A stretch of DNA of 64,000 nucleotides from Escherichia coli (GCF_002854065.1 NZ_CP024147.1), one strand, 5' to 3'; counted from the first letter of the stretch, positions 2,907-39,314 are shown. Translations and numbers: made by a program. The notes: a model not told the origin generated them from the sequence alone.

Positions 2907-3160
2907 TTTCTTGCGTTATTTTCGGCACCTTTTATGTAGCGAAGGTGCCGGAATATATTCTCTTTTGTTACTTATTTGTATACCGTGCACAATATTTTTA
3001 TCCCTCATATTTATAGGGTAAATTACCTGTAAAGTAGTGTCTAATTACCCGCCTCGCAAATTCCAGTTTTCAAATATCTATTTCAGGTCAAAAGATTGAA
3101 TTATTGGTGATGCTGCCAACTTACTGATTTAGTGTATGATGGTGTTTTTGAGGTGCTCCA

Positions 3161-3436
3161 GTGGCTTCTGTTTCTATCAGCTGTCCCTCCTGTTCAGCTA
3201 CTGACGGGGTGGTGCGTAACGGCAAAAGCACTGCCGGACATCAGCGCTATCTCTGCTCTCACTGCCGTAAAACATGGCAACTGCAGTTCACTTACACCGC
3301 TTCTCAACCCGGTACGCACCAGAAAATCATTGATATGGCCATGAATGGCGTTGGATGCCGGGCAACCGCCCGCATTATGGGCGTTGGCCTCAACACGATT
3401 TTCCGCCATTTAAAAAACTCAGGCCGCAGTCGGTAA
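3161..3436 (+). CDS. insA: IS1 InsA (DNA-binding protein, N-terminal part of the InsAB' transposase)
   Basis: 91-aa ORF with a Cys-rich zinc-finger N-terminus typical of IS1 InsA; A6C slippery site AAAAAAC at 3412-3418 for the -1 frameshift. Confidence 0.9.
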
Positions 3437-3858
3437 CCTCGCGCATACAGCCGGGCAGTGACGTCATCGTCTGCGCGGAAATGGACGAACAGTGGGGATA
3501 CGTCGGGGCTAAATCGCGCCAGCGCTGGCTGTTTTACGCGTATGACAGGCTCCGGAAGACGGTTGTTGCGCACGTATTCGGTGAACGCACTATGGCGACG
3601 CTGGGGCGTCTTATGAGCCTGCTGTCACCCTTTGACGTGGTGATATGGATGACGGATGGCTGGCCGCTGTATGAATCCCGCCTGAAGGGAAAGCTGCACG
3701 TAATCAGCAAGCGATATACGCAGCGAATTGAGCGGCATAACCTGAATCTGAGGCAGCACCTGGCACGGCTGGGACGGAAGTCGCTGTCGTTCTCAAAATC
3801 GGTGGAGCTGCATGACAAAGTCATCGGGCATTATCTGAACATAAAACACTATCAATAA
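3355..3858 (+). CDS. insB: IS1 InsB (transposase catalytic part, expressed as InsAB' by -1 frameshift)
   Basis: 167-aa ORF overlapping insA in the -1 frame; inside the IS1 inverted repeats. Confidence 0.9.
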
Positions 3859-4012
3859 GTTGGAGTCATTACCGAATTATTCACTGGAGACGATTCGTAA
3901 ATTCGCTGGATTTTTGACTAAAGTTTCTTTAGGATTTGTCTCATCGTATGATTAATTACACCAATCGTTCAACGTCTTGCTGATAAGTGATGGCGATTAT
4001 ATGAGGTTAGCA

Positions 4013-4141
4013 ATGCCTTCTGGAAATCAGGAACCCCGCCGCGATCCTGAATTAAAACGTAAAGCCTGGCTGGCGGTTTTTCTTGGTTCTGCACTTTTCT
4101 GGGTGGTTGTCGCACTGCTGATTTGGAAAGTGTGGGGATAA
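4013..4141 (+). CDS. ymiA: Small membrane protein (42 aa)
   Basis: ATG at 4013 to TAA at 4139-4141; single hydrophobic helix (AWLAVFLGSALFWVVVALLIW); located upstream of acnA as ymiA-yciX in K-12 (from memory). Below the ORF-track size cut-off. Confidence 0.55.
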   Translation: MPSGNQEPRRDPELKRKAWLAVFLGSALFWVVVALLIWKVWG

Positions 4142-4143
4142 CT

Positions 4144-4311
4144 ATGGTTGGTCAGGAGCAACTGGAGTCGTCACCATTATGCCAGGATAGTGACAATGAA
4201 CCAGAAACGAAACGGGAATGTTCCGTCGTTATTCCAGACGACTGGCAACTAACATCGCAGCAGCAAGCCTTTATAGAACTGTTTGCTGAAGATGATCAGC
4301 CGAAACAATAA
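4144..4311 (+). CDS. yciX: Small acidic protein
   Basis: ORF-track frame 4123..4311; internal Met at 4144 gives the likely product; immediately after ymiA. Start codon uncertain. Confidence 0.5.
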   Translation: MVGQEQLESSPLCQDSDNEPETKRECSVVIPDDWQLTSQQQAFIELFAEDDQPKQ

Positions 4312-4683
4312 TTATCATCATTCTTATTACCCATTTTTAATGAATTACAGGGCTTTTAATACACCGCAGCAATAACAGGTTGAGTTATCTCAACACAAAG
4401 TAATAACCGTTAAGGGTGTAGCCTATGATCAACACAAATATGAAATATTGGTCCTGGATGGGCGCGTTTTCTCTGTCGATGCTCTTCTGGGCCGAACTCA
4501 TCTGGATCATTACTCACTGATCCCTGACCCCGTTGCGGCGGGGTTTTCATTTGCTTTGCCACAAGCTTTCTCCTCTTTTATCAATTTGGGTTGTTATCAA
4601 ATCGTTACACGATGTTTGTGTTATCTTTAATATTCACCCTGAAGAGAATCAGGGCTTCGCAACCCTGTCATTAAGGAGGAGCT

Positions 4684-7359
4684 ATGTCGTCAACCCTACG
4701 AGAAGCCAGTAAGGACACGTTGCAGGCCAAAGATAAAACTTACCACTACTACAGCCTGCCGCTTGCTGCCAAATCACTGGGCGATATCACCCGTCTACCC
4801 AAGTCACTCAAAGTTTTGCTCGAAAACCTGCTGCGCTGGCAGGATGGTAACTCGGTTACCGAAGAGGATATCCACGCGCTGGCGGAATGGCTGAAAAATG
4901 CCCATGCTGACCGTGAAATTGCCTACCGCCCGGCAAGGGTGCTGATGCAGGACTTTACCGGCGTACCTGCCGTTGTTGATCTCGCTGCAATGCGCGAAGC
5001 GGTTAAACGCCTCGGCGGCGATACTGCAAAGGTTAACCCGCTCTCACCGGTCGACCTGGTCATTGACCACTCGGTGACCGTCGATCGTTTTGGTGATGAT
5101 GAGGCATTTGAAGAAAACGTACGCCTGGAAATGGAGCGCAACCACGAACGTTATGTGTTCCTGAAATGGGGAAAGCAAGCGTTCAGTCGGTTTAGCGTCG
5201 TGCCGCCAGGCACAGGCATTTGCCATCAGGTTAACCTCGAATATCTCGGCAAAGCAGTGTGGAGCGAATTGCAGGACGGTGAATGGATTGCTTATCCGGA
5301 TACACTCGTTGGTACTGACTCGCACACCACTATGATCAACGGCCTTGGCGTGCTGGGGTGGGGCGTGGGTGGCATCGAAGCAGAAGCCGCAATGTTAGGC
5401 CAGCCGGTTTCCATGCTTATCCCGGACGTAGTGGGCTTTAAACTTACCGGAAAATTACGTGAAGGTATTACCGCCACAGACCTGGTTCTCACTGTTACCC
5501 AAATGCTGCGCAAACATGGCGTGGTGGGGAAATTCGTTGAATTTTATGGTGATGGTCTGGATTCACTACCGTTGGCGGATCGCGCCACCATTGCCAATAT
5601 GTCGCCAGAATATGGTGCCACCTGTGGCTTCTTCCCAATCGATGCTGTAACCCTCGATTACATGCGTTTAAGCGGGCGCAGCGAAGATCAGGTCGAGTTG
5701 GTCGAAAAATATGCCAAAGCGCAGGGCATGTGGCGTAACCCGGGCGATGAACCGATTTTTACCAGTACGTTAGAACTGGATATGAATGACGTTGAAGCGA
5801 GCCTGGCAGGGCCTAAACGCCCACAGGATCGCGTTGCACTGCCCGATGTACCAAAAGCATTTGCCGCCAGTAACGAACTGGAAGTGAATGCCACGCATAA
5901 AGATCGCCAGCCGGTCGATTATGTTATGAACGGACATCAGTATCAGTTACCTGATGGCGCTGTGGTCATTGCTGCGATAACCTCGTGCACCAACACCTCT
6001 AACCCAAGTGTGCTGATGGCCGCAGGCTTGCTGGCGAAAAAAGCCGTAACTCTTGGCCTCAAGCGGCAACCGTGGGTCAAAGCGTCGCTGGCACCGGGTT
6101 CGAAAGTCGTTTCTGATTATCTGGCAAAAGCGAAACTGACACCGTATCTCGACGAACTGGGGTTTAACCTTGTGGGATACGGTTGTACCACCTGTATTGG
6201 TAACTCTGGGCCGCTGCCCGATCCTATCGAAACGGCAATCAAAAAAGGCGATTTAACCGTCGGTGCAGTGCTGTCCGGCAACCGTAACTTTGAAGGCCGT
6301 ATCCATCCGCTGGTTAAAACTAACTGGCTGGCCTCGCCGCCGCTGGTGGTTGCCTATGCGCTGGCGGGAAATATGAATATCAACCTGGCTTCTGAGCCTA
6401 TTGGTCATGATCGTAAAGGCGATCCGGTTTATCTGAAAGATATCTGGCCATCGGCACAAGAAATTGCCCGTGCGGTAGAACAAGTCTCCACAGAAATGTT
6501 CCGCAAAGAGTACGCAGAAGTCTTTGAAGGCACTGCAGAGTGGAAAGAAATTAACGTCGCACGATCCGATACCTACGGATGGCAGGAGGATTCAACCTAT
6601 ATTCGTTTATCGCCTTTCTTTGATGAAATGCAGGCAACACCAGCACCTGTGGAAGATATTCACGGTGCGCGGATCCTCGCAATGCTGGGGGATTCAGTCA
6701 CCACTGACCATATCTCTCCGGCGGGCGGTATTAAGCCCGACAGCCCAGCGGGTCGATACCTACAAGGTCGGGGTGTTGAGCGAAAAGACTTTAACTCCTA
6801 CGGTTCGCGGCGTGGTAACCATGAAGTGATGATGCGCGGCACCTTCGCCAATATTCGCATCCGTAATGAAATGGTGCCTGGCGTTGAAGGGGGGATGACG
6901 CGGCATTTACCTGACAGCGACGTAGTCTCTATTTATGATGCTGCGATGCGCTATAAGCAGGAACAAACGCCGCTGGCGGTGATTGCCGGGAAAGAGTATG
7001 GATCAGGCTCAAGCCGTGACTGGGCGGCAAAAGGTCCGCGTCTGCTTGGAATTCGTGTGGTGATTGCCGAATCGTTTGAACGAATTCACCGTTCGAATTT
7101 AATTGGCATGGGCATCCTGCCGCTGGAATTTCCGCAAGGCGTAACGCGTAAAACGTTAGGGCTAACCGGGGAGGAGAAGATTGATATTGGCGATCTGCAA
7201 AATCTACAACCCGGCGCGACGGTTCCGGTGACGCTTACGCGCGCGGATGGTAGCCAGGAAGTCGTACCCTGCCGTTGTCGTATCGACACCGCGACGGAGT
7301 TGACCTACTACCAGAACGACGGCATTTTGCATTATGTCATTCGTAATATGTTGAAGTAA
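4684..7359 (+). CDS. acnA: Aconitate hydratase A
   Basis: 891-aa ORF; SD AGGAGG upstream; aconitase-family sequence with Fe-S cysteine motifs ([17 protein letters not shown]). Confidence 0.95.
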
Positions 7360-7364
7360 CAAGT

Positions 7365-7401
7365 ATTTGCTTGCCGGTTATTTTGCTTCCGGCAAGCAAA
7401 T
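7365..7401. terminator. Bidirectional hairpin between convergent acnA and ribA
   Basis: Perfect inverted repeat ATTTGCTTGCCGG ... CCGGCAAGCAAAT flanked by T/A runs on both sides. Confidence 0.6.
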
Positions 7402-7422
7402 TAATTACACAATGCAAGAGGG

Positions 7423-8013
7423 TTATTTGTTCAGCAAATGGCCCATTTTCTCGGCTTTGGTATCGAGATAATGTTCGTTTTTGGGGTTACGACCTACAAT
7501 CAATGGTACGCGTTCAACAATATTAATCCCCGCTTCGGTCAGAATTTCGACTTTTTTCGGGTTATTGGTTAACAAGCGGACTTCATTGACGCCAAGGAGT
7601 TTGAACATATCAGCGCAAAGAGTGAAGTCGCGCTCATCAGCGGCGAAGCCTAACTGGTGGTTAGCCTCTACGGTATCGTAACCTTGATCCTGCAGTGCGT
7701 AAGCGCGGATTTTATTCAGCAGACCAATGTTACGACCTTCCTGACGGTGATACAGCAAAATACCACGGCCTTCCTCGGCAATTTGCGTCAATGCCGCTTC
7801 GAGCTGGAAGCCACAATCGCAGCGCAAGCTGAACAGGGCGTCACCGGTCAGACATTCGGAATGGACGCGCGCAAGTACCGGGGTATGCCCGGAAATATCG
7901 CCATAGACTAGCGCGACATGATCGTGTCCGGTTGCCAGTTCTTCAAATCCCACCATCAGGAAATCGCCCCATGGGGTTGGCAGTTTGGCTTCTGCCACAC
8001 GTTTAAGCTGCAT
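7423..8013 (-). CDS. ribA: GTP cyclohydrolase II
   Basis: 196-aa product starting [18 protein letters not shown] (ORF-track frame extends to 8076; start trimmed to the conserved N-terminus); CxGxxxxC zinc motif. Confidence 0.9.
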
Positions 8014-8182
8014 GAAATTCTCCAGATAATGCTGGTTCTGTATTGGCTTATTTTGCCATAACGAGAAGGGGTTCACCTAATCACGACGCGTCGATCGTTC
8101 ACGGAATGGCACAAATCTGTCAATTTTTCCTGGAACTGGCATTTTCAGTTATGATTGTGGGACTTATCAAAAAGGAGAGGCC

Positions 8183-8947
8183 ATGCGTTCGATTGCCCGA
8201 CGTACCGCAGTGGGAGCTGCACTATTGCTTGTTATGCCAGTAGCCGTATGGATTTCTGGCTGGCGTTGGCAACCTGGAGAACAAAGTTGGCTACTAAAAG
8301 CGGCTTTTTGGGTTACTGAAACTGTCACCCAGCCCTGGGGCGTCATTACACATTTGATTTTATTCGGCTGGTTTCTCTGGTGTCTGCGTTTTCGCATTAA
8401 GGCTGCCTTTGTATTATTTGCCATTCTGGCGGCCGCAATCCTTGTGGGACAAGGCGTTAAATCCTGGATCAAAGACAAAGTCCAGGAACCACGACCTTTT
8501 GTTATCTGGCTGGAAAAAACACATCATATTCCGGTTGATGAGTTCTACACTTTAAAGCGAGCAGAACGCGGAAATCTAGTGAAAGAACAGTTGGCTGAAG
8601 AGAAAAATATCCCACAATATTTGCGTTCACACTGGCAGAAAGAGACGGGGTTTGCCTTTCCTTCCGGTCACACGATGTTTGCTGCCAGTTGGGCACTGCT
8701 GGCCGTTGGTTTGCTGTGGCCGCGTCGGCGAACGTTAACCATTGCTATCTTGCTGGTCTGGGCAACTGGAGTCATGGGAAGCCGCCTGCTGCTCGGGATG
8801 CATTGGCCACGCGATCTGGTAGTAGCTACGTTGATTTCGTGGGCGCTGGTGGCGGTGGCAACGTGGCTTGCGCAACGAATTTGTGGGCCATTAACACCAC
8901 CTGCGGAAGAAAATCGCGAAATAGCGCAACGAGAACAAGAAAGTTAA
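8183..8947 (+). CDS. pgpB: Phosphatidylglycerophosphatase B (PAP2 family)
   Basis: 254-aa multi-pass membrane ORF with PAP2 motifs (PSGHT...). Confidence 0.9.
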   Translation: MRSIARRTAVGAALLLVMPVAVWISGWRWQPGEQSWLLKAAFWVTETVTQPWGVITHLILFGWFLWCLRFRIKAAFVLFAILAAAILVGQGVKSWIKDKVQEPRPFVIWLEKTHHIPVDEFYTLKRAERGNLVKEQLAEEKNIPQYLRSHWQKETGFAFPSGHTMFAASWALLAVGLLWPRRRTLTIAILLVWATGVMGSRLLLGMHWPRDLVVATLISWALVAVATWLAQRICGPLTPPAEENREIAQREQES

Positions 8948-9095
8948 CGCTGGTTGATTTTCCGAATTTAGCCCTTAAATCATCAACAATGCGCGTGGAT
9001 GCCATTTCGCAGACGGCGCGAAAATGGTACTTTAAAGGGCTATTGCGGTAAGTTGACCATAATTTATTCGCTCTAACCACATAACGGGAAGTAAT

Positions 9096-9404
9096 GTGAA
9101 ATATTTACTCATTTTCTTACTGGTGTTAGCGATCTTCGTGATTTCGGTCACGTTGGGTGCGCAGAACGATCAACAGGTGACGTTTAATTATCTGTTAGCG
9201 CAAGGGGAGTACCGTATTTCCACATTGCTGGCGGTATTGTTTGCTGCGGGTTTTGCTATCGGTTGGTTGATTTGTGGCCTGTTCTGGCTGCGAGTTCGTG
9301 TTTCCCTGGTGCGCGCTGAACGTAAAATAAAGCGACTGGAAAACCAGCTTTCACCCGCGACTGACGTGGCTGTAGTGCCGCACTCGTCAGCGGCGAAGGA
9401 ATAA
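9096..9404 (+). CDS. lapA: LPS assembly protein LapA (YciS)
   Basis: 102-aa two-helix membrane protein, GTG start, directly upstream of lapB. Confidence 0.85.
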   Translation: MKYLLIFLLVLAIFVISVTLGAQNDQQVTFNYLLAQGEYRISTLLAVLFAAGFAIGWLICGLFWLRVRVSLVRAERKIKRLENQLSPATDVAVVPHSSAAKE

Positions 9405-9410
9405 CTTTCT

Positions 9411-10580
9411 ATGCTGGAGTTGTTGTTTCTGCTTTTGCCTGTAGCCGCTGCCTATGGCTGGTATATGGGCCGCAGAAGTGCGCAACAAAACAAGCAAGAT
9501 GAAGCCAACCGCTTGTCGCGTGATTACGTAGCGGGGGTTAACTTCCTGCTTAGTAATCAACAGGATAAAGCGGTAGACCTGTTTCTCGATATGCTTAAAG
9601 AGGATACAGGCACCGTTGAAGCCCACCTTACGCTCGGAAACCTGTTCCGTTCGCGTGGCGAAGTTGATCGCGCTATTCGCATCCATCAGACCCTAATGGA
9701 AAGCGCCTCGCTGACCTATGAACAGCGTCTGTTGGCGATTCAACAACTGGGGCGTGATTACATGGCCGCCGGGTTATATGACCGCGCGGAAGACATGTTC
9801 AATCAGCTGACCGATGAAACTGACTTCCGCATTGGCGCGCTGCAACAGTTGCTACAAATCTACCAGGCTACCAGTGAGTGGCAGAAAGCAATTGATGTTG
9901 CCGAACGCCTGGTGAAGCTGGGTAACGATAAACAGCGCGTCGAAATTGCCCATTTCTACTGTGAGTTAGCCCTGCAGCATATGGCCAGCGACGATCTCGA
10001 TCGTGCCATGACCTTGCTAAAAAAAGGGGCGGCGGCAGATAAAAACAGCGCCCGCGTATCCATCATGATGGGACGCGTGTTTATGGCGAAAGGAGAATAC
10101 GCCAAAGCCGTCGAAAGTCTGCAACGTGTCATATCCCAGGACAGAGAACTGGTCAGCGAAACGCTGGAAATGTTGCAAACCTGCTATCAGCAGTTGGGTA
10201 AAACTGCCGAATGGGCAGAATTCCTGCAACGCGCGGTGGAAGAGAACACCGGTGCCGATGCTGAATTGATGCTTGCTGATATCATCGAAGCGCGCGACGG
10301 TAGTGAGGCCGCACAGGTCTATATTACGCGCCAGCTTCAGCGTCATCCGACCATGCGTGTGTTCCATAAGTTAATGGATTACCACTTAAATGAAGCGGAA
10401 GAAGGGCGTGCCAAAGAGAGCCTGATGGTGCTGCGTGACATGGTTGGCGAGAAGGTACGTAGTAAGCCTCGTTATCGCTGCCAGAAATGTGGTTTTACCG
10501 CATACACCCTCTACTGGCATTGTCCGTCTTGTCGTGCCTGGTCAACTATTAAACCGATACGCGGTCTTGATGGCCTGTAA
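9411..10580 (+). CDS. lapB: LPS assembly protein LapB (YciM), TPR plus rubredoxin-like domain
   Basis: 389-aa ORF; N-terminal membrane anchor, TPR repeats, C-terminal CxxC...CxxC motif. Confidence 0.9.
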   Translation: MLELLFLLLPVAAAYGWYMGRRSAQQNKQDEANRLSRDYVAGVNFLLSNQQDKAVDLFLDMLKEDTGTVEAHLTLGNLFRSRGEVDRAIRIHQTLMESASLTYEQRLLAIQQLGRDYMAAGLYDRAEDMFNQLTDETDFRIGALQQLLQIYQATSEWQKAIDVAERLVKLGNDKQRVEIAHFYCELALQHMASDDLDRAMTLLKKGAAADKNSARVSIMMGRVFMAKGEYAKAVESLQRVISQDRELVSETLEMLQTCYQQLGKTAEWAEFLQRAVEENTGADAELMLADIIEARDGSEAAQVYITRQLQRHPTMRVFHKLMDYHLNEAEEGRAKESLMVLRDMVGEKVRSKPRYRCQKCGFTAYTLYWHCPSCRAWSTIKPIRGLDGL

Positions 10581-10772
10581 TTTTTTAAAAAAACCGACTT
10601 TAGTTACAACATACTAGTTATTGATGTCCCATTGTGCTCCGGCAACGACAGCGCAGAAAAAGCCTGCCAGGGGAGAAATCGCAACTGTTAATTTTTTATT
10701 TCCACGGGTAGAATGCTCGCCGTTTACCTGTTTCGCGCCACTTCCGGTGCCCATCATCAAGAAGGTCTGGTC

Positions 10773-11510
10773 ATGACGTTAACTGCTTCATCTTCTTCCC
10801 GCGCTGTTACGAATTCTCCTGTGGTTGTTGCCCTTGATTATCATAATCGTGATGCCGCGCTGGCCTTTGTCGACAAGAGCGACCCACGCGATTGTCGTCT
10901 GAAGGTCGGCAAAGAGATGTTTACATTGTTTGGGCCACAGTTTGTGCGCGAACTTCAACAGCGTGGTTTTGATATCTTTCTTGACCTGAAATTCCACGAT
11001 ATCCCCAACACTGCAGCGCACGCTGTCGCTGCTGCAGCTGACTTAGGCGTGTGGATGGTGAATGTTCATGCCTCTGGTGGGGCGCGTATGATGACCGCAG
11101 CGCGTGAGGCACTGGTTCCGTATGGCAAAGATGCACCGCTTTTGATTGCTGTGACAGTGTTGACCAGCATGGAAGCCAGCGACCTGGCCGATCTTGGCGT
11201 GACACTGTCACCTGCAGATTATGCAGAACGTCTGGCGGCACTGACGCAAAAATGTGGCCTTGATGGTGTGGTGTGTTCTGCTCAGGAAGCTGTGCGCTTT
11301 AAACAGGTATTCGGTCAGGAGTTCAAACTGGTTACGCCGGGCATTCGTCCGCAGGGGAGTGAAGCTGGTGACCAGCGCCGCATTATGACGCCAGAACAGG
11401 CGTTGGCGGCTGGTGTTGATTATATGGTGATTGGTCGCCCGGTAACGCAATCGGTAGATCCAGCGCAGACGCTGAAAGCGATCAACGCCTCTTTACAGCG
11501 GAGTGCATGA
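10773..11510 (+). CDS. pyrF: Orotidine-5'-phosphate decarboxylase
   Basis: 245-aa product from ATG 10773 (ORF-track frame starts at 10713); OMP decarboxylase motifs ([10 protein letters not shown]). Confidence 0.9.
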
Positions 11511-11836
11511 TGAGTGATTCCAACAGCCGTCTGGTCTACTCAACAGAAACCGGACGTATTGATGAGCCAAAAGCGGCCCCAGTACGCCCTAAAGGCGACG
11601 GTGTGGTGCGTATTCAGCGTCAGACCAGTGGACGTAAAGGTAAGGGCGTTTGCCTGATTACCGGTATCGATATCGATGATGCCGAACTGACAAAACTTGC
11701 AGCGGAACTGAAGAAAAAATGCGGCTGCGGCGGAGCAGTTAAAGATGGAGTTATTGAAATCCAGGGCGATAAGCGTGATTTATTAAAATCACTACTTGAA
11801 GCGAAAGGGATGAAGGTAAAACTCGCAGGCGGTTAA
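11510..11836 (+). CDS. yciH: SUI1/eIF1-family translation initiation factor-like protein
   Basis: 108-aa ORF overlapping the pyrF stop (ATGATGA), as expected for the pyrF-yciH operon. Confidence 0.85.
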   Translation: MSDSNSRLVYSTETGRIDEPKAAPVRPKGDGVVRIQRQTSGRKGKGVCLITGIDIDDAELTKLAAELKKKCGCGGAVKDGVIEIQGDKRDLLKSLLEAKGMKVKLAGG

Positions 11837-11843
11837 CATAAAA

Positions 11844-11864
11844 AGCCACGGATATATCCGTGGC
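11844..11864. terminator. Hairpin downstream of yciH
   Basis: Perfect stem AGCCACGGA-TATA-TCCGTGGCT followed by a T-rich stretch. Confidence 0.55.
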
Positions 11865-11961
11865 TTTCGAATATTTTACTGTGTGTATTATTCAGTTATT
11901 TCGTACTGAACAGAATCAAGCGTATTATAATTGCGAGTCGATAATCGACATTTATTTACGA

Positions 11962-12180
11962 TTATTTACCGACCTGGTGACCAATAACACCACCGACAGC
12001 TGCGCCACCTAATGTACCCAACGTACTGCCATCGGTCAGTACTGCACCGCCTAATGCCCCTGCACCCGCGCCAATAGCGGTGTTACGGTCCCGTTTAGAC
12101 CAGTTAGAACAGGCACTCAGAGACATTGCCAGGGTAATTGCCAGAACAGCCGCGGTCATTTTTTTGCTCGTTACAAACAT
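11962..12180 (-). CDS. osmB: Osmotically inducible lipoprotein B
   Basis: 72-aa ORF with lipoprotein signal peptide (LSAC) and Gly-rich repeats. Confidence 0.9.
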   Translation of the reverse strand: MFVTSKKMTAAVLAITLAMSLSACSNWSKRDRNTAIGAGAGALGGAVLTDGSTLGTLGGAAVGGVIGHQVGK

Positions 12181-12448
12181 AATACTCTCTCCTGAATTTA
12201 TGATTCACGGAAGTAAGCTCTCTATAACTATAATAGCTAAGAATAAGCATGGTGAAATTATTCCGTGAAATCCGCTCGCGCGCAGGGTTATATCACGCAG
12301 GTGATAATGACTTCCTGTTATATCGCTGATAATAATTTTATATCTTAAGAGTGTTAATAACAGGTAAATAGTCTTAATTATCAACCAGGAATCATCTTAG
12401 AGCGGATGATTTGCCAAACTGCAAATCATCCGTAGAGAAGGGAAATGG

Positions 12449-35086: not shown

Positions 35087-35219
35087 TATTTGCCCCTGGG
35101 GTTAATGCGCTAAGCATAAGGGCGGATGATAGCACTCGTGATCCGGGTCATACATCTTTTTATAGTTAATGGCGCGGCGCATTACCCTCAGGCAGGATAA
35201 TGCGCCGCGCATCCGACTA

Positions 35220-36605
35220 TTACGTTTCGCTCACTGGCGTTCTGTCACCTTCGTACAGCGGCACTTTGCGATAGCGGCGGATCAGATACCACAAATATGC
35301 GCCGCCTAACGAAGCCCATACCAGACCGAGTGTCAGTGACGTTGACTCGAGGTTAACCCACAGCACACCCACCGTCAGCGCGCCAACCAGCGGCATCAGC
35401 AAATAGTGGAAGTGATCCTTCCAGCTTTTATTCATTCCTTTGCGCCGCCAGAAATGATTAAACACCGACAGATTCACGAAGGTAAACGCCACCAGAGCAC
35501 CGAAGTTAATTAACGCTGTGGCGGTAACTAAATCGAAGAACAGCGCCGACAACGCGACAATCCCGACCATAATGACGTTCAGTGCCGGAGTCCGCCATTT
35601 TGGGTGCACATAGCCAAACACGCGCTCCGGAAACACATTGTCACGCCCCATCACATACAGCAGACGCGACACGCTGGCATGTGAAGCCAGGCCAGAGGCT
35701 AACGTGTTCACAAACGTGGTGCAGAGGAAAATCGACTGGAAGAGCTTGCCGCCGACGTACAGCGCAATTTCAGGCAGTGCGGCGTCCGGGTCTTTAAAGC
35801 GGCTGATATCGGGGAAGAACAGCTGCATAAAGAACGACGCCGCGATAAAGATAACGCCACCATAGACCGCCGTCAGGAAGATGGCTTTCGGGATCACGCG
35901 TGCGGCGTCTGGTGTCTCTTCCGAAAGTGTGGTCACCGCATCGAAACCAAGGAAAGAGAAGCAGACGATCGTCGCCCCGGTAATAATCGGAATCAGATGC
36001 GCGTTCTCGCTGATAAACGGCTGAAGTGACCAGACGGTGCCAACGCCTTCTCCTTTATGCAGTCCCTGAACCACCAGGAAGATAAACACCACCATGATGG
36101 AGATTTGCACCAGTACAAACAGGGTATTGAAGTTAGCGACCAGGTTGACGCTCTTCAGATTCGCGGCGGTTAAAATGGCGACGAAGGTTACCACCCACAC
36201 CCACGGCGGCACTTCCGGGAAGAGGGCGGAGAGATAGATTTTCGCCAACAAAACGTTGATCATCGGCAAAAAGAGATAATCCAGCAGTGATGACCAGCCG
36301 ACCATAAATCCGACGTGCGGGTTAATCGACTTTTGCGCGTAGGTATAGGCCGAACCGGCCTCCGGAAACTGGCGAACCAGTTTGCCGTAGCTGATAGCGG
36401 TAAACAGCACGCCCGCCAGCGCCAGCAAATAGGACGCCGGAACGTGACCGTCGCTAATGCCGGAGACAATACCAAAAGTATCAAATACGGTCATCGGCGT
36501 GAGATAGGCCAGACCCATCATCACCACCTGCCACAATTTCAGTGATTTTCGCAGACGGGTTTTGCCGGGTTGCGCGGCAATATTCAGTGGTGAATTAATA
36601 GCCAT
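35220..36605 (-). CDS. puuP: Putrescine:H+ symporter (APC family)
   Basis: 461-aa product from the Met at 36605 ([15 protein letters not shown]...); 12-TMS amino-acid permease. Confidence 0.9.
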
Positions 36606-38323
36606 AATTGCTGCCTCCCCTGCGTAATAAGGTTTGCGGTCGTGTCGACCTGAAATCAAACCTGTTTAGCAAGGGAAGCAAAGGGGGCGGAGTCCAGTCA
36701 GTCGCAGGAGGGGCGCATACGCAGCCTCCCTCGCCATGCGGGGATTTAATCATCGGCATCATCTCATTTCCTCGTCACAGTCTTAATCGTTAACGGAAGC
36801 CCGTTGCCGCCTGCGCTCCATAACGCGACATCCGGGAAATGTCTGGATTACCAGCAAATGTCAGGCCTGGCTCCGCTCAGGCCGATGAAACAACCCCGCA
36901 AGGGGTATTACGCGTTTTTCAACATCCACTCAATTTCTGTTTCTGTGATGAGGCGCTCAAACTGCAACAGCTCATCATTTTTACAGGCGTGATACACATG
37001 GCAAAACCGTTCGCCTAAATAGCGGCGCAGGTGATCATTCTCGATAAACTCACCCAGGGCATCGCTCTGGCGAATCGGGAAGGGTAAGCCATCCTGTTCC
37101 AGCCCGTTGCCTTCGACTTCTTCCTGCAACGGCAGCTCGTTATCAAGACCGTGCAAAATACCGGCAAAAATCGCTGCCATCACCAGATATGGGTTGGCAT
37201 CGGCACCCGCCACGCGATATTCCACGCGGTGATTATGGCGATCGCCGCATGGAATACGCAGGGCGACGGTACGGTTATTATGGCCCCACGACGCCTGCGT
37301 CGGTACATACATACCTGGCTGGAAGCGGCGATACGAGTTCACGTTTGGTGCCAGCAACGCCATTGATGACGGCATCAGGTCAATCATCCCGGCGAGCATC
37401 TTTTTCAGCAGCGGCGAATCTTCGCCTTCTGTGTCAGAAAGCACGTTCTCGCCACGATTATTTTGCATACTGATATGGATATGCATTCCGCTGCCCGCGT
37501 GCTCTTCATACGGCTTCGCCATAAAAGTGGCGTGCATCTTATGCTTTTCTGCCATCAGACGCACCAGGCGTTTTAGTGCCAGCGCATCATCGCAGGCTTC
37601 CAGCACGTTATCAGTATGGTAAAGGTTGATTTCAAACTGACCCGGCGAGGCCTCAGCGACCGCGCCATCTGCCGGAATCAGCTGTAACTGCGCCAGTTCA
37701 TCAATATCATTGAGCACGTCGGCGAAGTGGTTGAGGTTATCAACGGAGTAAACCTGGCTTTGTGTATTGCGGTCATCAGTGCCGGGCGCGCAGGGCGGTT
37801 GCAGATACCCTTCAGCGTCGCGCTGGCGATCCAGTAAATAGAACTCCAGCTCTACCGCTACGACCGGGAACAATCCGCGCTGGCGCAGCTGCTGCCACAG
37901 GCGGTTAAGAACGTTCCGCGGCTCAACGTCAAAGGGAGCGCCATCTTCATCGACCATGGTCAGGAGCATCTGACCGATAAACTCTGGATCGGCGGCAGAA
38001 GGGGTTAAGGAACCGAGAACAGGAACACAGGTACGATCCGGCTCGCCCATTTCCTGACCCAGACCTGCTTCTTCTACTACGTTGCCCAGAATATCCATTG
38101 CAAATACCGAGGCCGGGAAATAACACCCTTTCTCGAGCTTCTTCAGGCTTGAAACAGGAATACGTTTTCCACGGAAGCAACCATTCAAATCGGTAAGTAA
38201 AACATCAACATATTGCGTATTCGGGTAGCGCTCCAGGTAGCGTTTCACTTCCTGCGTAAAGGCGCTACCCCGCCTCTCTTCTGACTGCTGAACAAAGTTC
38301 TCTACTTCGGTAATGACTCCAAC

Positions 38324-38827
38324 TTATTGATAGTGTTTTATGTTCAGATAATGCCCGATGACTTTGTCATGCAGCTCCACCGATTTTGAGAACGACAGCG
38401 ACTTCCGTCCCAGCCGTGCCAGGTGCTGCCTCAGATTCAGGTTATGCCGCTCAATTCGCTGCGTATATCGCTTGCTGATTACGTGCAGCTTTCCCTTCAG
38501 GCGGGATTCATACAGCGGCCAGCCATCCGTCATCCATATCACCACGTCAAAGGGTGACAGCAGGCTCATAAGACGCCCCAGCGTCGCCATAGTGCGTTCA
38601 CCGAATACGTGCGCAACAACCGTCTTCCGGAGCCTGTCATACGCGTAAAACAGCCAGCGCTGGCGCGATTTAGCCCCGACGTATCCCCACTGTTCGTCCA
38701 TTTCCGCGCAGACGATGACGTCACTGCCCGGCTGTATGCGCGAGGTTACCGACTGCGGCCTGAGTTTTTTAAATGGCGGAAAATCGTGTTGAGGCCAACG
38801 CCCATAATGCGGGCGGTTGCCCGGCAT
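38324..38827 (-). CDS. insB: IS1 InsB
   Basis: Translation identical to the InsB at 3355..3858. Confidence 0.9.
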
Positions 38828-39021
38828 CCAACGCCATTCATGGCCATATCAATGATTTTCTGGTGCGTACCGGGTTGAGAAGCGGTGTAAGTGAACTGCA
38901 GTTGCCATGTTTTACGGCAGTGAGAGCAGAGATAGCGCTGATGTCCGGCAGTGCTTTTGCCGTTACGCACCACCCCGTCAGTAGCTGAACAGGAGGGACA
39001 GCTGATAGAAACAGAAGCCAC
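38746..39021 (-). CDS. insA: IS1 InsA
   Basis: Translation identical to the InsA at 3161..3436. Confidence 0.9.
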
Positions 39022-39314
39022 TGGAGCACCTCAAAAACACCATCATACACTAAATCAGTAAGTTGGCAGCATCACCCTCTACTTCAACGATATTGGTTTC
39101 CATGATTCTTCGCCTTTGGTTTGTTTTCCGCTCGTTATCAAAGCGTAAAATATAATGACCACCATTCGAATCTGTATGCAAACTAAATGTTTGTCAAATG
39201 TTAAATTGAGTTTGCAAAAATGAAAACTCACTGCTAGATTGAAAAAATATTGAACATAAAGGTCATTTAAACCGCAGTAATGGCGATAATTTAGTCCACT
39301 TTGTGAGATTGAGC

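Follow-up and report, generated by a model that had tools for sequence, protein, structure and literature searches.

Two copies of one insertion sequence (IS) that face each other on a chromosome raise the question of whether the DNA between them has been inverted, and of how the pair came about. We examined this question in a stretch of 64,000 nucleotides of the Escherichia coli sequence NZ_CP024147.1 (GCF_002854065.1), referred to below as the window, in which one copy of IS1 (IS1-1) lies between cysB and ymiA and a second copy (IS1-2) lies within puuA in the opposite orientation. The original prediction for this locus, made from the sequence, held that the two copies are identical, that each carries its own matched duplication, that the ymiA-to-puuA segment between them has not been inverted, and that identical copies speak for recent IS1 expansion; it suggested comparing the copies at the nucleotide level and looking for swapped flanks in independent assemblies. 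The evidence presented here makes it highly probable that one IS1 variant transposed twice, independently and by simple insertion, into an IS1-rich lineage to form the pair, and that the segment underwent no net inversion. In kind the feature is already known, being textbook IS biology that has left a potential but unused inversion substrate, and it has little significance beyond annotation of the strain.

Two identical IS1 copies in inverted orientation

To locate the copies, the window was searched for inverted repeats, after which the ends were read directly and the copies were compared with each other. Only one long repeat was found in the 64 kb, and its two inverted arms lie at 3106-3879 and 38303-39076. 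When copy 1 was compared directly with the reverse complement of copy 2, there were no mismatches (768/768), and it follows that the copies also encode the same InsA and InsB', as had been predicted. The opposite strands of the copies and the spacing between them (Table 1) likewise agree with the predicted inverted arrangement and distance of ~34.4 kb. The arms found by the repeat search (774 nt) and by BLAST (771 nt identical) overrun the elements because the flanks on the side of the right terminal repeat (IRR) both start with GAA (GAATTA versus GAAGTA). This GAA lies directly outside the IRR of each copy (3874-3876 and 38306-38308), which probably reflects either chance (~1.6%) or a mild target preference.

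Both copies have the length and ends typical of IS1, that is, ~768 bp bounded by imperfect terminal repeats of ~23 bp, with the left repeat (IRL) GGTGATGCTGCCAACTTACTGAT matching the IRR GGTAATGACTCCAACTTATTGAT at 18/23 positions. They also show the expected coding arrangement, in which insA is followed by insB' in the -1 frame by way of an A6C slippery motif. Searches against Pfam placed all IS1 domains far over the cutoff, with PF03811 (3e-21) and PF12759 (1.7e-30), corresponding to Zn_ribbon_InsA and HTH_Tnp_IS1, on InsA, and PF03400 (1.6e-78), DDE_Tnp_IS1, on InsB'. An identical copy in strain CUWW06, described below, is labelled by PGAP as 'IS1-like element IS1B family transposase, programmed frameshift'. 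IS1-1 is situated 200 bp past the cysB stop and ~128 bp ahead of ymiA, and insA and insB' of IS1-2 run in the same direction as puuA.

Table 1. Positions of the IS1 pair and associated features in the window
Feature	Position	Strand	Description
TSD of IS1-1 (8 bp)	3098-3105 and 3874-3881		Exact, direct, abutting the element
IS1-1	3106..3873	+	Complete, 768 bp; cysB-ymiA intergenic region
IS1-1 insA	3161-3436	+	Stop codon 3434-3436
IS1-1 A6C frameshift motif	3412-3418	+	Within TTAAAAAAC at 3410-3418, ahead of the insA stop
IS1-1 InsAB' end	3858	+
IS1-1 IRR end	3873	+
Invertible segment	3874..38308		34,435 bp; gene content judged by collinearity with annotated CUWW06
TerA	10597..10619	-	AACTAGTATGTTGTAACTAAAGT; between lapB and pyrF
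IS2 TSD (AATAT, 5 bp)	20096-20100 and 21432-21436
IS2	20101..21431	+	Complete, 1331 bp; starts TAGACTGGCCCCCTGAATCTCC, ends GGGGCAAATCCA
puuA body	36908..38308	-	Codons 7-472, intact
TSD of IS1-2 (9 bp)	38300-38308 and 39077-39085		Exact, direct, abutting the element
IS1-2	38309..39076	-	Complete, 768 bp; in puuA after codon 9
puuA 5' stub	39077..39103	-	Start codon and codons 2-9, METNIVEVE

Each copy has its own target-site duplication and its own empty site

IS1 generates target-site duplications (TSDs) of 8 or 9 bp (PMC12428005). The matched duplications that had been predicted are exact at both copies, GAATTATT at IS1-1 and CTCTACTTC at IS1-2, and the copy of CTCTACTTC at 38300-38308 forms codons 7-9 of puuA on the minus strand. 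Duplications abutting an element would be expected by chance with a probability of ~1.5e-5 for 8 bp and ~4e-6 for 9 bp, and a perfect repeat of 768 bp with such duplications at its ends is far beyond chance.

Sites lacking the insertions were sought in other strains, with 5,426 complete RefSeq E. coli genomes, which do not include that of the window strain, as the comparison set. Among these, the nearest complete genome was that of strain CUWW06 (NZ_CP182139.1), isolated from wastewater in Thailand. K-12 MG1655 carries a single GAATTATT at the position homologous to the IS1-1 site, in AAAAGATTGAATTATTCACTGGAG, and CUWW06 has an uninterrupted puuA with a single CTCTACTTC, its positions 36964-36972 (locus L001) aligning to both sides of IS1-2. 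The IS1-2 site is empty in essentially all other complete genomes, and IS1-2 itself was found in 0/5,426. Because the sites are empty elsewhere, each duplication must have been made by the insertion of its own element. Both copies therefore combine a direct TSD of the length typical of IS1 with a known empty site.

Ancestral orientation of the enclosed segment

The segment contains, in its left part, ymiA, yciX, ymiC, acnA, ribA, pgpB, lapAB, TerA, pyrF and yciH; in its middle, osmB, yciT, pdeR, rnb, yciW, fabI and an IS2 element; and in its right part, an island encoding a TetR regulator and RND, OMF and MFS components, followed by sapFDCBA, ymjA, puuP, ymjE and the body of puuA. Across both junctions the order and strand of the genes are those of CUWW06 and K-12, with topA and cysB outside the left copy, ymiA, yciX and acnA through fabI to sapFDCBA, ymjA, puuP and puuA between the copies, and puuD and puuR outside the right copy. 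If recombination between the two IS1 copies had inverted the segment, GAATTATT would be expected on one side of an element and GAAGTAGAG on the other, and this is not the arrangement present. Thus neither of the signs of a completed IS-mediated inversion, swapped TSDs and an inverted segment, was found, and because the window is collinear with CUWW06 and K-12, the segment is in its ancestral orientation, with no net inversion in the consensus assembly. The predicted absence of inversion accordingly stands on the matched TSDs and the collinearity, in the restricted sense of no net inversion in the consensus. The predicted extent of the bracketed segment also holds, with the refinement that its right end is an IS1 inserted inside puuA rather than a neutral boundary. 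The presence of TerA and of IS2, a second new IS, within the segment goes beyond what had been noted before.

The recombinant junction that an inversion would create was built by joining 800 bp of the cysB flank, IS1, and 800 bp of the reverse-complemented puuA body. This junction was found in 0/5,426 complete genomes, with none above the 66% coverage expected from the flank and IS1, so that no swapped flanks were seen in any independent assembly; the test is a weak one, since IS1-2 is absent from all the other genomes. The locus is also unlike a programmed invertible switch of the fimS or hin type. The repeats are whole IS1 elements, no recombinase is annotated in the homologous 65 kb of CUWW06 (no search aimed at invertases was made in the window), and no switchable promoter or other hallmark of programmed inversion is present. 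Nothing in the window suggests that inversion here is programmed, frequent or selected.

Order of the insertions

To place the insertions relative to each other, the window was aligned to 65 kb of CUWW06. Over ~62 kb the two sequences differ by 13 single-nucleotide polymorphisms (SNPs) and one 1-bp indel, and the window contains exactly two additional blocks, IS1-2 and a block of 1336 bp at 20101-21436 that holds the IS2 element. IS1-1 is present in CUWW06 at the same base and with identical sequence, and we infer that IS1-1 was in place before the window strain and CUWW06 diverged, and that IS1-2 was acquired afterwards. In such a sequence of events, IS1-1 would have entered the AT-rich cysB-ymiA spacer before the split, and IS1-2 would later have entered puuA behind codon 9, facing the other way on the chromosome and creating a 9-bp duplication; IS1-1 itself or another identical genomic copy would have served as its donor. 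The pair would then have remained as a passive substrate for RecA-dependent recombination, which, if it took place, would invert the segment and swap the flanks.

The recent changes over the 62 kb therefore comprise two new IS insertions and 13 SNPs. In K-12 grown without selection, the rate of IS insertion is ~1/3 of the rate of base substitution (PMC5009759), and the ratio of 2 to 13 is of the same order as that measured value. In this IS-rich lineage, an appreciable part of the recent changes is due to IS insertion.

Alternative origins of the pair

Could the pair have arisen in a single event? IS1 transposes mainly replicatively (PMC12428005) and shows local hopping (PMC5009759), and identical copies on one molecule, 34 kb apart, are what a one-step intramolecular transposition of IS1-1 into puuA, with inversion of the intervening DNA, might leave behind; such an inversion-insertion, however, would split the new TSD between the copies in inverted orientation, break up the old TSD and invert the segment, whereas both copies keep their own direct TSDs and the segment remains collinear with CUWW06 and K-12, so that we give this origin almost no probability. 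Hardly any can be granted, either, to an IS1-flanked composite transposon that arrived, or is mobile, as a unit. The arrangement does recall Tn9 and Tn1681, since the DNA between two complete IS1 elements includes an accessory efflux island, and in Tn1681 the IS1 copies are also in inverted orientation. Unlike those transposons, however, the pair in the window has no common outer TSD, its outer flanks being GAATTATT on the left and CTCTACTTC on the right, and it encloses resident core chromosome in K-12 order rather than foreign passenger DNA; moreover, other genomes show a separate empty site for each copy, consistent with separate insertion, and a unit of 36 kb is far above the size of efficiently mobilised IS1 composites. 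It is also highly improbable that one copy is an artefact of assembly, through a misplaced repeat or an orientation imposed by a reference. Identical repeats of 768 bp are classically hard for short-read assemblers, and the orientation of DNA between identical inverted IS copies can be trusted only when reads span the IS; against an artefact stand the precise ends and the clean 8- and 9-bp TSDs, which are single-copy at the empty sites and which a misplaced repeat would not create, together with the confirmation of IS1-1 in the independent complete assembly of CUWW06.

A different question is whether the segment flips appreciably by recombination between the IS1 copies, so that the culture is mixed or the segment has flipped back. 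The copies offer 768 bp of perfect inverted homology, and IS-IS recombination in K-12 occurs at ~4.5e-5 per genome per generation when all pairs are summed, with a similar number expected between inverted copies, and inversions between such copies are invisible to short reads (PMC5009759). IS1-mediated inversions have also become fixed in the long-term evolution experiment (LTEE; PMC4173774), among them the 1.49-Mb RRE-IS1 inversion of Ara-1 (Raeside et al. 2014, PMC4173774), which has the same IS family and inverted-pair geometry as the window and for which the same RecA-dependent mechanism would be expected. The LTEE inversions, however, span 164 kb to 1.8 Mb and were completed, whereas the interval in the window is 34 kb and uninverted, and one of its copies, unlike those of the LTEE case, is a strain-specific insertion in puuA. 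Appreciable flipping is very unlikely in our view: the rate implied for a single pair is at most of the order of 1e-6 per generation, neither a site-specific recombinase nor any sign of selection for switching is present, the inverted junction is missing from the complete genomes (with the low power noted above), and a flip would turn TerA against the clockwise fork, an arrangement that selection is unlikely to favour. The pair is indeed a substrate for inversion of DNA that includes fabI and the efflux locus, as had been predicted, but at ~38 or more IS1 copies it is one of several hundred possible and equivalent pairs and is unremarkable among them.

Nothing contradicts two recent, independent insertions without inversion, the explanation that we favour, but two limits apply. 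A consensus sequence would not reveal a segment that had flipped an even number of times, nor a minority of the population with the inverted segment. Furthermore, the identity of the two IS1 copies is by itself weak evidence of recency, because only ~0.15 differences are expected in 768 bp at a background of ~2e-4 per bp and because gene conversion could also homogenise the copies. The recent IS1 expansion that had been proposed from this identity is better supported by the empty IS1-2 site in CUWW06, a relative so close that it differs by 13 SNPs over 62 kb, by a third identical IS1 copy in that genome near ogt and zntB, and by the high number of IS1 copies there, which is ~38 or more (at least 40 matching pieces), compared with a median of ~10 places per genome.

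IS1-2 interrupts puuA

When the CUWW06 annotation was mapped through the alignment, puuA was found on the minus strand with its start at 39103. The 5' stub left by IS1-2 reads into the IRL of the element and, after 8 further codons (METNIVEVEGDAANLLI), reaches a stop codon. The insertion separates the remaining body of the gene from the promoter, the ribosome-binding site and the start codon. The stop of insB' lies in frame, 5 codons upstream of the body, and reading of this frame showed no ATG, GTG or TTG between that stop and the body. The broken frame indicates that IS1-2 is likely a knockout of puuA, which encodes the glutamate-putrescine ligase PuuA. Downstream of puuA, in the same direction, lie ymjE and puuP. 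IS1 is classically strongly polar, and IS1-2 is probably polar on ymjE-puuP. Because puuA is disrupted and IS1 polarity would extend to these downstream genes, the Puu route of putrescine catabolism is likely disabled. The main practical consequence of the pair in this strain would thus be the very likely loss of Puu putrescine utilisation through IS1-2.

Compared with ordinary IS1 insertion mutations (PMC12428005), the two copies have all the defining features and do not differ in kind, only their sites being particular to the lineage; IS1-2 would be a classic knockout. Insertions of IS1 in the puuA-ymjE-puuP operon were also seen in two other complete genomes: TUM10008 has one in ymjE and 50EVAW has one at the puuA 3' end, each running in the direction of puuA, as IS1-2 does.

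TerA and IS2 within the segment

The replication terminator TerA of the window has its K-12 counterpart, AATTAGTATGTTGTAACTAAAGT, at the homologous place and on the same strand. The 23-mers differ by one change, at position 3, outside the core (AACTAG… versus AATTAG…), and the 18-mer core AGTATGTTGTAACTAAAG is exact, with 0.03 matches expected by chance. TerA normally blocks the anticlockwise fork. Inversion of the segment by recombination between the IS1 copies, if it occurred, would flip TerA alone, causing it to block the clockwise fork; terD and the re-oriented terA would then bound the innermost trap, and dif would no longer be inside it.

The fork trap has two innermost sites, of which TerA is one, and flips of a single inner terminator, terC, are found in Shigella genomes (PMC8347550), so that a single mis-oriented inner terminator is viable. 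A hypothetical inversion in the window would resemble the terC-only flips of Shigella flexneri and S. boydii (Goodall et al. 2021, PMC8347550) in turning one innermost terminator; it would differ in that dif stays inside the re-formed innermost trap in Shigella, whereas dif would probably fall outside the terD-terA trap here. In contrast to the flipped terC of Shigella, TerA in the window is in its normal orientation. We consider it very unlikely that the IS1 pair lets a subpopulation invert the TerA-bearing block, shifting the trap to the ~60-kb terD-terA interval with dif outside. If this were the case, the strain would represent a naturally occurring forerunner of the Shigella-type flips of single terminators and a ready-made system for the cost of a mis-oriented inner terminator.

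The IS2 element codes for two frames of the IS3 family, of which orfB matches rve, rve_3 and HTH_21 in Pfam. It occupies the spacer from which fabI and the gene for the TetR-family regulator of the efflux island diverge, at a distance of 209 bp upstream from the fabI start and ~273 bp upstream from the regulator, toward which its frames point. Because it is absent from CUWW06, this insertion is strain-specific.

Recurrent IS1 insertion in the cysB-acnA spacer

The combination of the cysB flank, IS1 and the acnA-side flank was found in one place in 402/5,426 complete genomes. In this search, multi-piece matches are joined into one place, and insertion sites have to be established by reading the junctions, which was done for CUWW06 and for four of the ~400 genomes, mapped onto K-12. 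We considered whether IS1-1 might be an ancient insertion common to the 402 genomes, and rejected this idea since the four sampled genomes use other sites. In B18271, strain 10 and 1506D011, the element is inserted 35 bp downstream of the window's site, with the duplication GATTTTTG, and in MIN6 it is inserted between yciX and ymiC, with the duplication CAATAACAG. The five genomes with junctions read thus use three sites (GAATTATT, GATTTTTG and CAATAACAG), and CUWW06 alone among them shares the site of IS1-1 in the window; of the 30 matches listed, its match was also the sole one in a single piece. From the junctions read, the cysB-acnA spacer (~2907-4680 in the window) is a recurrent target of IS1. 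Compared with the window element, the IS1 variants occupying the GATTTTTG site in the three strains show identities of 99.1%, 99.0% and 94.1%, and this divergence may reflect either repeated hits at a hotspot or gene conversion. A count obtained with a 140-bp junction query (394 genomes at ≥80% coverage) was unusable, as the flank and nearby IS1 ends had been joined.

Strain 10 (NZ_CP048330.1) has an apparent extra piece of the IS1 left end, of ~33 bp, at ~1336-1368 of locus L006; this partial left end, ACTTACTGATTTAGTGTATG, stands directly ahead of the full IRL at the GATTTTTG site.

Two further observations came from the comparison with CUWW06. A third IS1 in that genome, 100% identical to the copies in the window (18814-19581 of locus L002), adjoins a truncated abgT-family gene between ogt and zntB, and the right end of the window falls ~1 kb short of the homologous site. 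The gene for the RND periplasmic adaptor at 22420-23541 of the window is intact, with 373 codons and a stop, and the CUWW06 annotation lists its counterpart as a pseudogene that carries an internal stop, the sole difference being C in the window versus T in CUWW06 at 22480.

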